64,000 bases of DNA from Ferrimonas sp. Lineage in GTDB: Bacteria; Pseudomonadota; Gammaproteobacteria; Enterobacterales; Shewanellaceae. Location: contig NZ_JBLXDO010000017.1 of the NCBI RefSeq assembly GCF_048263965.1, positions 7,223-71,222 of the forward strand, given 5' to 3'. The translations under genes were made by a program, and so were the position numbers. Shown here one piece after another: positions 7,353 through 10,423 of the stretch (the first letter of the stretch is position 1; every line of letters starts with the position of its first letter). The notes under the pieces are model-generated. The model was given only the letters and a program-made list of their open reading frames with translations, was not told the origin of the DNA and did not search any database.

Positions 7353-8864
7353 TTACAGCTGGTCCTCGATAGGCAGCCACTGCAGAAACCAGGCGCCGAA
7401 TCGTCGCCAGAATCCCGCATCCGGTTCACTCTCGAGGATGGCCCCCGTTTCCATGTCATGCCATCTGAGCTCGCCCTGCTCCAGTGACAGCTTATAGGCG
7501 ACCTGTCCCAGCGCCTCTCCCAGCCCGTCGTTAACCGCCCCGGCCAGTTCGTCCGAGTGGATAAACACCCCCATCTCGGTGTTGATCTGGGCGGAGCGGG
7601 GATCGAGGTTAAAGGAGCCGACAAACAGGATGTTGCCATCAAACACCATGGTCTTGGCATGCAGGCTGGCTTGAGAGGAGGCGTTCCAGGCACCGGGTTC
7701 CAGGCCTGGCAAGCGCTTGGTTTCCCACAGCTCCACCCCAGCTTCCAGCATCGCCTTACGATACCCCTTATAACCGGAGTGCACCGCGACCACATCGGTG
7801 GCGGCCAGGGAGTTGGTGAGCACCCGGACCCTGACGCCCTGGCTGACCAGTCGGGCCAGACCTTTGACCCCTTCTTCACCGGGGACAAAGTAGGGGGAGA
7901 CCAACAGCAGGTCGTGCTCGGTGGCTTCGAAGTAGCGGGCCAGGGCATCCACCATCAGGGTGGGGATCTGCTCCTGAACTGCAGCCTTCTCCGGAGCGTC
8001 GGCCACCACATGGATCTCTGCCCAGTAGAGGGGCAGAGTCTCATCGGTCAGATGACGCACCAGAGGCGTATCACGCAAGGAGTCAATATAGGCCTGCTGC
8101 CTGGCCTGGTCCCGCTCAATCACTTCGGCAAACTCCCGGGTGATCTGTTCGGTGGAGATCTTCTCCTGCTCAGGAATCAGGTGCTCCACCCCGATGGCGT
8201 AGTCGCTGTTCCAGTAGAGGTCGAACTGGGTGGCGGTCTCGTTGACCGCCGGCCCCAGCAGCATCACGTCGAAATCCCCAAAGCTGACCTGCTGATTGGC
8301 AGCAAAGTACTCATCGCCGATGTTGCGGCCGCCGGTGACGGCCAGGGTGCTGTCTACCACCATGGACTTGTTGTGCATGCGCCGGTTGGTCCGGTCGAAA
8401 CTGCCCAACATCTCCAGTGAGCGCCACCGCCTGTTGGTAAAGGGGTTGAACAGGCGAACCTGAATGTTGGGGTGCTGGTTGAGGCGGGAGAGGGCGTCAT
8501 CCTTGCCACTTTGCATGTCATCCAGCAGCAGCCTCACACGGACGCCGCGCTCCGCCGCCTGCCACAGGCTCCAGAGCAGGGCCCGACCCGTATCATCGCC
8601 TCGATAGATGTAGGTTTGCAGGTCGATACTGCTGACCGCCTGGTTGGCCGCCAGCACCCGGATGATCAGGGCTTCACGGCCATCTGAGATGGGATAAACG
8701 CCGCTGAGTCCTGGTTGTTCATTCACCAAGGGGGCAAAGGTTTGATGCAGGGGGCTGTGGTCCGGTGCCGGCAGGCTGTGACTGGATTGCTGTTCCACCT
8801 GTGGGAGCGAGGTGGCACACCCGCCCAGGAGCAGGCATAAGAGCAACAACGGGGACTTGAGCAT
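7353..8864 (-). CDS. Phospholipase D family protein, cardiolipin synthase ClsC/YmdC-like, with lipoprotein signal
   Basis: Two HKD motifs (HNKSMVVD, HAKTMVFD); lipobox LLGGC; GGRNIGDEYF. Confidence 0.88.
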   Translation of the reverse strand: MLKSPLLLLCLLLGGCATSLPQVEQQSSHSLPAPDHSPLHQTFAPLVNEQPGLSGVYPISDGREALIIRVLAANQAVSSIDLQTYIYRGDDTGRALLWSLWQAAERGVRVRLLLDDMQSGKDDALSRLNQHPNIQVRLFNPFTNRRWRSLEMLGSFDRTNRRMHNKSMVVDSTLAVTGGRNIGDEYFAANQQVSFGDFDVMLLGPAVNETATQFDLYWNSDYAIGVEHLIPEQEKISTEQITREFAEVIERDQARQQAYIDSLRDTPLVRHLTDETLPLYWAEIHVVADAPEKAAVQEQIPTLMVDALARYFEATEHDLLLVSPYFVPGEEGVKGLARLVSQGVRVRVLTNSLAATDVVAVHSGYKGYRKAMLEAGVELWETKRLPGLEPGAWNASSQASLHAKTMVFDGNILFVGSFNLDPRSAQINTEMGVFIHSDELAGAVNDGLGEALGQVAYKLSLEQGELRWHDMETGAILESEPDAGFWRRFGAWFLQWLPIEDQL

Positions 8865-8926
8865 GATGCAGGCTCCCAATTGGAATGAACTCTAAGCCTA
8901 GCAATGGGTTAGCCTGAGTAACAAGC

Positions 8927-8950
8927 AAAAAAATGCGGCCGGGAGGCCGC
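8927..8950 (-). terminator. Intrinsic terminator with no annotated gene upstream
   Basis: On the - strand GCGGCC-TCCC-GGCCGC, then A and a 7-T run. Confidence 0.75.
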
Positions 8951-9345
8951 CAAGACGGTTATCGTGAACAACAGAACATCACCCGCTTATACGCTTGGGC
9001 CTGATTAAGAGATCATCGTTTCTTACTCAACCTGCGTGTTCCCGCCCTCAAAGGCAAACCTTTTGCGACGAGCGTTTGGTTTTGGCGATGCCGCTGAAAG
9101 ATGGAGGAGCAATCCCCGGTCTGTAAAAGGTGTCCCACCTTAGCGTTGTCACTCCTTTCCCCCTTTCGAAAGTCGTACCCAGCCAATTGCTGGAGCCAAT
9201 AACATCTCATTCAGTGGCATTTTTGATGCCGGAGCATCCTGGCCTTGTCCGCAGGGCTGGTCGATCCGTTCTCTCGCGGGGACACGCCCCTGTGAGAGCC
9301 TGACGCGACCGCCACTCCGTTGCCCGAGGTGGGTTTGGATTTTCT
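8927..9345 (-). ncRNA. Candidate structured ~420-nt sRNA; 5' end uncertain
   Basis: Orphan terminator; several short hairpins on the - strand (CTCTC..GGGG/CCCC..GAGAG, GGCAT/ATGCC, CCAGC/GCTGG, CTTTCGAAAG, AAGGTG/CACCTT); GU-rich GTGATGTTCTGTTGTT near the 3' end. Confidence 0.4.
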
Positions 9346-9472
9346 CTTTAGACTCAAATTGTTCTAACTTGCTTATTCATCAAATTGGGCTCAAAGTGGG
9401 AATTAATCCTCTGGTGAATTAATGCCTGAGGCCTAGACTGACGTCATTCACAGATTATGGAGTGACCCACAG

Positions 9473-10423
9473 ATGAGAGCCCTGTTCTCCCTCTTTCTTT
9501 CTCTTCCTCTGCTCGCCGCTTGCAGTGGTGACGGAACCTCAAAGGCACTGGGCACCCTGGAGCGGGATCGGGTGATACTTACCGCCACCGCCAATCAGAT
9601 TGTGCGCAGCACGCCCATCGCCGAAGGCAGCCCGGTGCACCAGGGGGATATCCTGGTGGTATTGGATGACACTCAGCAGAAGGCGATCGTGGCCCGAACC
9701 CGAGCAGAGGTGGCCAAAGCCAACGCCTACCTGCTCAGGCTGACCAATGGTGAGCGCCCCGAGGATATCGCCGCCGCCCAGGCCAATCTGCACCGGGTGG
9801 AAGCCACCCTAGTGGAGGCCCAGGCCAACTATCAGCGTGCCGTCACCCTGGTGGACAGAAAGCTGGCCAGCCAGGCTGAACTGGACAGTGCCCTGGCCAA
9901 CCGGGATGCGGTCATCGCCGAGCGAGAGTCGGCCAGAGAGCAACTGGCCAAGCTGACTCGGGGCAGCCGGGTCGAAGACATCACCCAGGCTCAGGCTTCA
10001 CTGGAGGCGGCCCAGGCGGAACAGGCATTGCAGGAGCAGATCCTGAGTGATCTGACCGTGGTGGCCACCCGGGATGGGATCTTGGACAGCCTGCCCTACA
10101 ACGTCGGCGAGCGGGTGCCCATGAGCGGCATTGTCGCCGCCATTCAGGCGGAGATGGCCCCCTTTGCCCGGGTCTATGTGCCTGAGCCCTACCGGGTTGC
10201 CATGAAGCCTGGGATGACCCTGACCGTGCATGTGGATGGGGTGGAATCCTCCTTTGAAGGCAAGTTGCGTTGGATCGCCACCGAGCCCTCCTTTACCCCC
10301 TATTACGCCCTGAACGAGCAGGACAGGGCTCGCCTGGTCTATCTGGCCGAGGTGTTGCTGCCTGAGTCTGCCATGACACTGCCCTCCGGCGTGCCCGCCC
10401 AGGTGGAGATGCCCCATGAGTAA
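9473..10423 (+). CDS. HlyD-family membrane fusion protein (YbhG-like), lipoprotein signal
   Basis: LLAAC lipobox, biotinyl-like GSPVHQGD segment, coiled-coil hairpin. Confidence 0.9.
   Translation: MRALFSLFLSLPLLAACSGDGTSKALGTLERDRVILTATANQIVRSTPIAEGSPVHQGDILVVLDDTQQKAIVARTRAEVAKANAYLLRLTNGERPEDIAAAQANLHRVEATLVEAQANYQRAVTLVDRKLASQAELDSALANRDAVIAERESAREQLAKLTRGSRVEDITQAQASLEAAQAEQALQEQILSDLTVVATRDGILDSLPYNVGERVPMSGIVAAIQAEMAPFARVYVPEPYRVAMKPGMTLTVHVDGVESSFEGKLRWIATEPSFTPYYALNEQDRARLVYLAEVLLPESAMTLPSGVPAQVEMPHE

Follow-up and report, generated by a model that had tools for sequence, protein, structure and literature searches.

The 64,000-nt window analysed here, which derives from the genome of a Ferrimonas species (G000), contains a spacer of 593 nt (8880-9472) that separates two divergent genes. 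On the minus strand, a gene encoding a PLD-family lipoprotein begins with an ATG at 8864 and runs to 7353, and on the plus strand a HlyD-like gene (9473-10423) is followed by genes for an ABC ATPase and an ABC-2 permease. Within the spacer lies an intrinsic terminator on the minus strand (8927-8950), which consists of the stem GCGGCC/GGCCGC with the loop UCCC (8950-8935) followed by A+U7 (8934-8927), and the PLD start codon is located 63 nt downstream of it on the same strand. As the genes bordering the spacer are divergent, no co-directional gene feeds this terminator, and no conserved gene was found upstream of it. The starting point of the initial annotation, a strong minus-strand terminator without a credible upstream gene, was thereby borne out.

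To follow the spacer through related bacteria, a comparison was made that covered 40 relatives and 19 Ferrimonas genomes. Matches to the spacer were found in four of the 40 relatives (G016, G013, G017, and G002), all belonging to the same genus. The matches in G016 and G013 comprise the HlyD-proximal 136 nt (93-94% identity) and the 3' 245-270 nt (72-77% identity), those in G017 the HlyD-proximal block and the PLD-proximal stretch on either side of an unrelated filler, and that in G002 only 42 nt upstream of the PLD gene. The element itself, that is, the terminator with its conserved upstream sequence, is present as a single copy in three of the 19 Ferrimonas genomes (G000, G016, and G013). 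The coding flanks of these three species are 83-89% identical, and codon third positions, which served as a proxy for neutral change, are 72-75% identical between G000 and G016 and 63-69% identical in the pairs with G013. Beyond this sample, an exact-pattern scan of GTDB genomes yielded only F. futtsuensis DSM 18154 besides chance matches, and two metagenome scans gave either no matches or chance matches only. When the 74-nt 3' module was turned into a covariance model and run against 121 genomes of the family, only the three training loci were recovered, and a weak match of 27.9 bits in G000 is the ordinary terminator of a dehydrogenase gene. A literature search returned no paper on small RNAs of Ferrimonas and nothing of use about GcvB among Shewanella relatives.

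Both ends of the spacer are well conserved. The HlyD-proximal block (9363-9472, with no strand assigned) is 94-97% identical among the three species and 84-85% identical to G017, a conservation near that of codon positions 1 and 2 (97-98%) and far above that of third positions (63-75%). It contains ATTAATTC twice, 8 nt apart, as well as the palindrome TGACGTCA within a TGTGA-N6-TCAGT motif, and is probably a densely packed operator and promoter region controlling the HlyD/ABC-2 exporter operon; possibly, it is also where a minus-strand transcript originates. No regulator gene adjoins the block. At the opposite end, the minus-strand stretch between the terminator and the PLD start codon (GCTTGTTACTCAGGCTAACCCATTGCTAGGCTTA...GGGAG, 8865-8926) shows 78-89% pairwise identity in the three species. 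About 60 nt upstream of the PLD gene (TCAGGCTAACCCATTGCTAGGCTTA...GGGAG) are kept in five Ferrimonas genomes including G002, the matching stretch upstream of PLD in locus L012 being located at 1163-1219, and this region probably represents the promoter and 5' UTR of the PLD gene itself. In G002, where the PLD-proximal 42 nt are kept, a LysR-type gene and an ORF of 112 aa take the place of HlyD upstream.

The sequence between these two regions shows a different pattern. The part of the candidate transcript that is shared by the three species upstream of the 3' module (8983-9166, minus strand) has pairwise identities of 68, 57, and 60% plus indels, which is no better than the 63-75% of codon third positions. 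By this comparison the shared body is unconstrained, with a conservation at or below that of synonymous sites, apart from a minor better-kept island, UACAGACCGGGGAU..CUUUCA, at about 9125-9095. Farther upstream, the alignment shows a GC-rich segment of about 135 nt with several hairpins (9167-9301, minus strand) that occurs only in G000 and is absent in G016, G013, and G017. Since G013, the most divergent of the three species, also lacks the segment, its gain by insertion in the lineage of G000 is the more parsimonious reading. The segment has no second copy in the genome and no BLASTN match in plasmids or phages, and an origin as a repeat or MITE was rejected because no other genomic copy exists. 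In G017 (locus L011, 1172-1316), an unrelated, very GC-rich, palindromic, REP-like filler occupies the place between the two conserved control regions, indicating that this site of the spacer is a hotspot for replacement or insertion. Judged from the alignments, the constrained parts of the spacer are only the control regions next to the two genes and a short terminator module, plus the minor island.

The initial annotation had described a structured transcript of about 420 nt reaching from 9345 to the terminator, with a run of short hairpins and an embedded ORF that might make it a dual-function RNA. The 5' end at 9345, and with it the length of about 420 nt, turned out to be a guess, as a search of the spacer in G000, G016, and G013 revealed no sigma-70-like promoter. 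Folding of 441 nt gave a minimum free energy of -148.1 kcal/mol, compared with -147.2 +/- 5.5 kcal/mol for shuffled sequences (z = -0.17), and the 3' 114 nt gave z-scores of -0.8 to -1.7, with predicted folds that differ among the three species apart from the terminator. In the 246-column alignment of the three sequences, the covariation term of RNAalifold was -0.98 kcal/mol and a pair-counting shuffle control gave 337/500 (three sequences only), so that neither method revealed usable covariation in this three-species alignment. With about 135 nt specific to one genome, a drifting body, and no covariation, the idea of a long structured RNA does not hold. The hairpins that had been listed (CTTTCGAAAG and one with a GGA loop) are short, unconserved in the relatives, and mostly located in or beside the G000-only segment, to which most of the run belongs. 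A CsrB/Rsm-like GGA decoy was also considered and rejected; about 9 GGA per about 300 nt were counted by eye versus about 5 expected, and these are unconserved and give no Rfam match.

The embedded ORF of 65 codons (9013-9210, minus strand, MRCYWLQQ...) exists as described, with a start that falls within the G000-only segment and, in G016, a frame broken by indels of 4, 2, and 2 nt. With its start in an insert specific to one genome and its frame broken in the relatives, the ORF was judged to be non-coding, and the idea of a dual-function RNA falls with it.

What remains of the candidate transcript is its 3' end. The terminator hairpin is found in the same form in G016 and G013, the U tail has 7 residues in G000, 10 in G016, and 9 in G013, and the closing pair of the stem is G-C, G-U, or A-U across the three species. 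Because G-U pairs work only in the RNA made from the minus strand, this pattern fits a real terminator acting at the RNA level. Rho-independent terminators with about 6-7 or more U are a mark of the Hfq-dependent sRNA class, and the U tail found here has at least 7 residues. The module from the seed to the terminator (58 columns) shows pairwise identities of 93, 77, and 82% versus 63-75% at third positions, and within the candidate transcript only this 3' module of about 58 nt looks constrained. The three species are so close, with coding sequences 83-89% identical, that conservation over 58 nt is weak evidence. The module includes CUGUUGUU in its seed stretch, a 13-nt run, CTGTTGTTCACGA, that is invariant across the three species, and the 17-mer CUGUUGUUCACGAYAAC (8974-8958, minus strand), which is kept in all of them. 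The conserved core can fold into a weak hairpin, GUUGU-UCACG-AYAAC (8972-8958), in which the 3' half of the presumed seed is paired and in which G000 has G-U at pair 32-40 where the other two species have G-C; the core of 13-17 nt is also partly paired in the predicted folds.

The feature that had drawn attention to the locus is a G/U-rich 16-mer, GUGAUGUUCUGUUGUU, on the minus strand (8982-8967). It reads GTGATGTTCTGTTGTT, ends 16 nt upstream of the terminator stem, and is followed in G000 by CACGAUAACC. The sequence of gcvB from E. coli MG1655, which was fetched and checked, contains GTGATGTTGTGTTGTT, and the claim of a single mismatch to the R1 seed of GcvB is therefore correct. The 16-mer is the sole match with at most one mismatch in the 4.2-Mb genome, where about 0.1 would be expected by chance. 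It is identical in G016, and in G013 it reads AUGAUCACCUGUUGUU, with four changes that all fall in its 5' half.

GcvB is an Hfq-dependent sRNA of Enterobacteriaceae, Vibrionaceae, and Pasteurellaceae. The candidate resembles it in having a G/U-rich 16-mer one base off R1, an intrinsic terminator, and a long U tail, and its organism possesses hfq and gcvA. In GcvB, however, the seed lies between SL1 and SL2, whereas here it lies 16 nt upstream of the terminator stem; GcvB is encoded divergently from gcvA, whereas the candidate, on contig C17, is located on a different contig from gcvA, beside the HlyD-like and PLD genes. Moreover, the R1 core GUUGUGUUUGCAAUU, the part of R1 that is most widely kept and is present in E. 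coli gcvB and in the match of G032, is absent at the candidate. The Rfam model of GcvB (RF00022, gathering score 42 bits) gave no match above the cut-off in the 19 Ferrimonas genomes; among the 40 relatives scanned, it scores 47-110 bits in four other families of the same order. Its two best matches in G000, both at 21.7 bits, fall on the terminator-bearing 3' ends of coding genes. From these scans, Ferrimonas seems to have no recognisable gcvB. A gcvA orthologue with 70% identity to that of E. coli is encoded on contig C8 (40357-41241). Opposite gcvA (C8, 39960-40360), a short ORF and a terminator are found and no G/U-rich sRNA. A relationship of the candidate to GcvB is not supported, as RF00022 gives no match, gcvA is not adjacent, and the 16-mer carries four changes in G013. 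Other known families fared no better. The whole window gave no Rfam match at the gathering threshold, and the region 8700-9600 gave none on either strand even at E<=10, riboswitch families included, in agreement with the earlier suggestion of an undescribed family.

On this basis, we tentatively favour, with less than even confidence, a clade-restricted candidate for an Hfq-type sRNA in which the functional part would be the short 3' end. Transcription of the minus strand would start in the conserved HlyD-proximal block or just downstream of it, cross a fast-evolving and dispensable 5' portion that is about 135 nt longer in G000, and stop at 8927. The part that functions would be the 3' end, which may be cut free by processing in the manner of ArcZ or RprA and would base-pair through its G/U-rich stretch with target mRNAs at CA-rich sites (complement AACAACAG). 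The last 55-60 nt, comprising the core CUGUUGUUCACGAYAAC and the terminator with at least 7 U, are arranged like the 3' module by which trans-acting sRNAs bind Hfq. Transcription, Hfq binding, processing, and targets of the module are inferred. An hfq gene is present in G000 (tblastn, contig C1, 516142-516342, 98.5% identity over 67 aa), and an orphan terminator, a conserved G/U-rich stretch, and the presence of hfq together fit the 3' end of an Hfq-type sRNA; of the original proposal these parts stand, and the structured form of about 420 nt does not.

Enterobacterial sRNAs of the ArcZ/RprA type have a conserved 3' end, composed of seed and terminator, that is cut from a longer and variable primary transcript. 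The candidate is like them in that conservation lies in the last 60 nt or so and the 5' part drifts and varies in length, and it is unlike them in showing no similarity to RF00081 or RF00034 and in occurring in three species, not in a whole family. It also corresponds to the orphan-terminator candidates collected by SIPHT or sRNAPredict, which are chosen by the same features (an intergenic terminator, no upstream gene, and local conservation) and have a substantial false-positive rate; here, in addition, no sigma-70-like promoter was found.

The preference for an sRNA draws on the orphan terminator, which every one of the three species with this locus has and whose closing pair varies between G-C, G-U, and A-U, on the 93, 77, and 82% identity from seed to terminator versus 57-68% in the body, and on the invariant CTGTTGTTCACGA, the U tail of 7-10 residues, the presence of hfq, the absence of an Rfam family, and the unconserved ORF. 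Set against it are the failure to find a promoter in three genomes, the restriction to three of 19 Ferrimonas genomes, the loss of the 5' half of the seed in G013, and folds that pair part of the seed and differ by species. Targets were searched with RNAduplex from -80 to +40 around the starts of about 3,570 genes predicted by a crude gene caller. The top energy for the real seed was -27.7 kcal/mol and ten shuffled seeds gave -26.5 to -30.9 kcal/mol, so that over these roughly 3,570 start regions the duplexes of the real seed were no better than those of shuffled ones; from so crude a scan, this outcome says little for or against targets. A scan of the start regions for contiguous complements, using the same kind of crude gene calls, showed no obvious enrichment for transporters or any other function.

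Nearly as likely as an sRNA is a purely insulating role, with no function for the RNA itself. Minus-strand transcripts leaving the HlyD control region, whether divergent or spurious, would be halted by the terminator before they run into the PLD promoter, and the conserved bases next to the terminator would be DNA-level elements of that promoter, namely an UP-like T tract and an operator GTTGT-N5-ACAAC, a near-palindrome located about 80 bp upstream of the putative PLD -10 element. An insulator would account for the neutral drift of the body and its tolerance of a roughly 135-nt insertion, for the narrow distribution, for the lack of excess predicted targets, and for G017, which has swapped the whole filler and lost the terminator; in that genome the gene order is equal, the motif is absent, and no proper terminator is found. 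The conserved 15-mer is an inverted repeat at the DNA level in G016 and G013, and the conserved stretch upstream of PLD starts right after the T tract. In G000, however, the repeat has ATAAC as its right arm, which spoils the DNA palindrome and keeps a G-U pair in the RNA, and no further intergenic copy of an operator-like motif with this loop was found in the genome. G002, in turn, has retained the PLD-proximal 42 nt but neither motif nor terminator, so that expression of PLD does not depend on them.

The same genome bears on whether the terminator might instead belong to a cis-acting leader or attenuator, where PLD would be transcribed from far upstream and the terminator would be a regulated stop, be it through a riboswitch or through antitermination by a protein or an sRNA. 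The position of the terminator 63 nt upstream of the PLD start on the same strand, with a conserved stretch between them, would suit such a leader. We nevertheless consider it unlikely: there is no conserved or stable upstream structure, no antiterminator common to the three species, and no match to a riboswitch family, and an aptamer would not tolerate an insertion of 135 nt together with neutral drift. The PLD orthologues of G002, G009, and G017 are without the terminator, those of G002 and G009 having other neighbours, and because the conserved stretch belonging to PLD persists upstream of it in G002 in the absence of the element, PLD can do without the terminator as a leader. A further alternative would be a functional analogue of GcvB that acquired an R1-like seed independently and represses the mRNAs of amino-acid and peptide transporters through CA-rich enhancers in a genus without gcvB. 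The one-mismatch 16-mer, unique in the genome and placed beside a terminator, speaks for it, as do the lack of RF00022 matches in 19 Ferrimonas genomes and a gcvA gene without an upstream sRNA-like sequence. It is nonetheless very unlikely in our estimation, because the 16-mer is broken in G013, GUUGUGUUUGCAAUU is absent, the target scan, admittedly crude, gave no signal, and a single 16-mer likeness chosen in hindsight among all known seeds carries little weight; an element found in three of 19 species can also not be a genus-wide replacement of GcvB. We give just as little credence to the corresponding evolutionary scenario, in which a young, lineage-specific, Hfq-dependent sRNA with an independently gained R1-like seed would have been born de novo from a variable spacer and converged on the CA-rich enhancers of transporter genes.

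If the 3' module were expressed and bound by Hfq, it would represent a very young sRNA, restricted to three species and with a fast-changing 5' part. It would further place a GcvB-like seed in a genus apparently without gcvB, and as such a case it would have some value for work on the origin of sRNAs. As the evidence stands, the locus is an ordinary orphan-terminator sRNA candidate among many, and the main value of the analysis is negative: a striking likeness to a 16-mer of GcvB is unconserved and does not reflect membership of that family.

The genome-wide scan for the putative DNA operator elsewhere found only an unrelated palindrome at the end of an insertion sequence. As a separate observation on the assembly of G000, at least seven contig ends (the starts of C15, C25, and C35 and the ends of C19, C28, C34, and C38), as well as C10 at 99660-99700, share about 77 nt with the palindrome GCCAGTTGTCACTGACAACTGGC, and this shared sequence probably marks one end of an insertion sequence that occurs in multiple copies and breaks the assembly.
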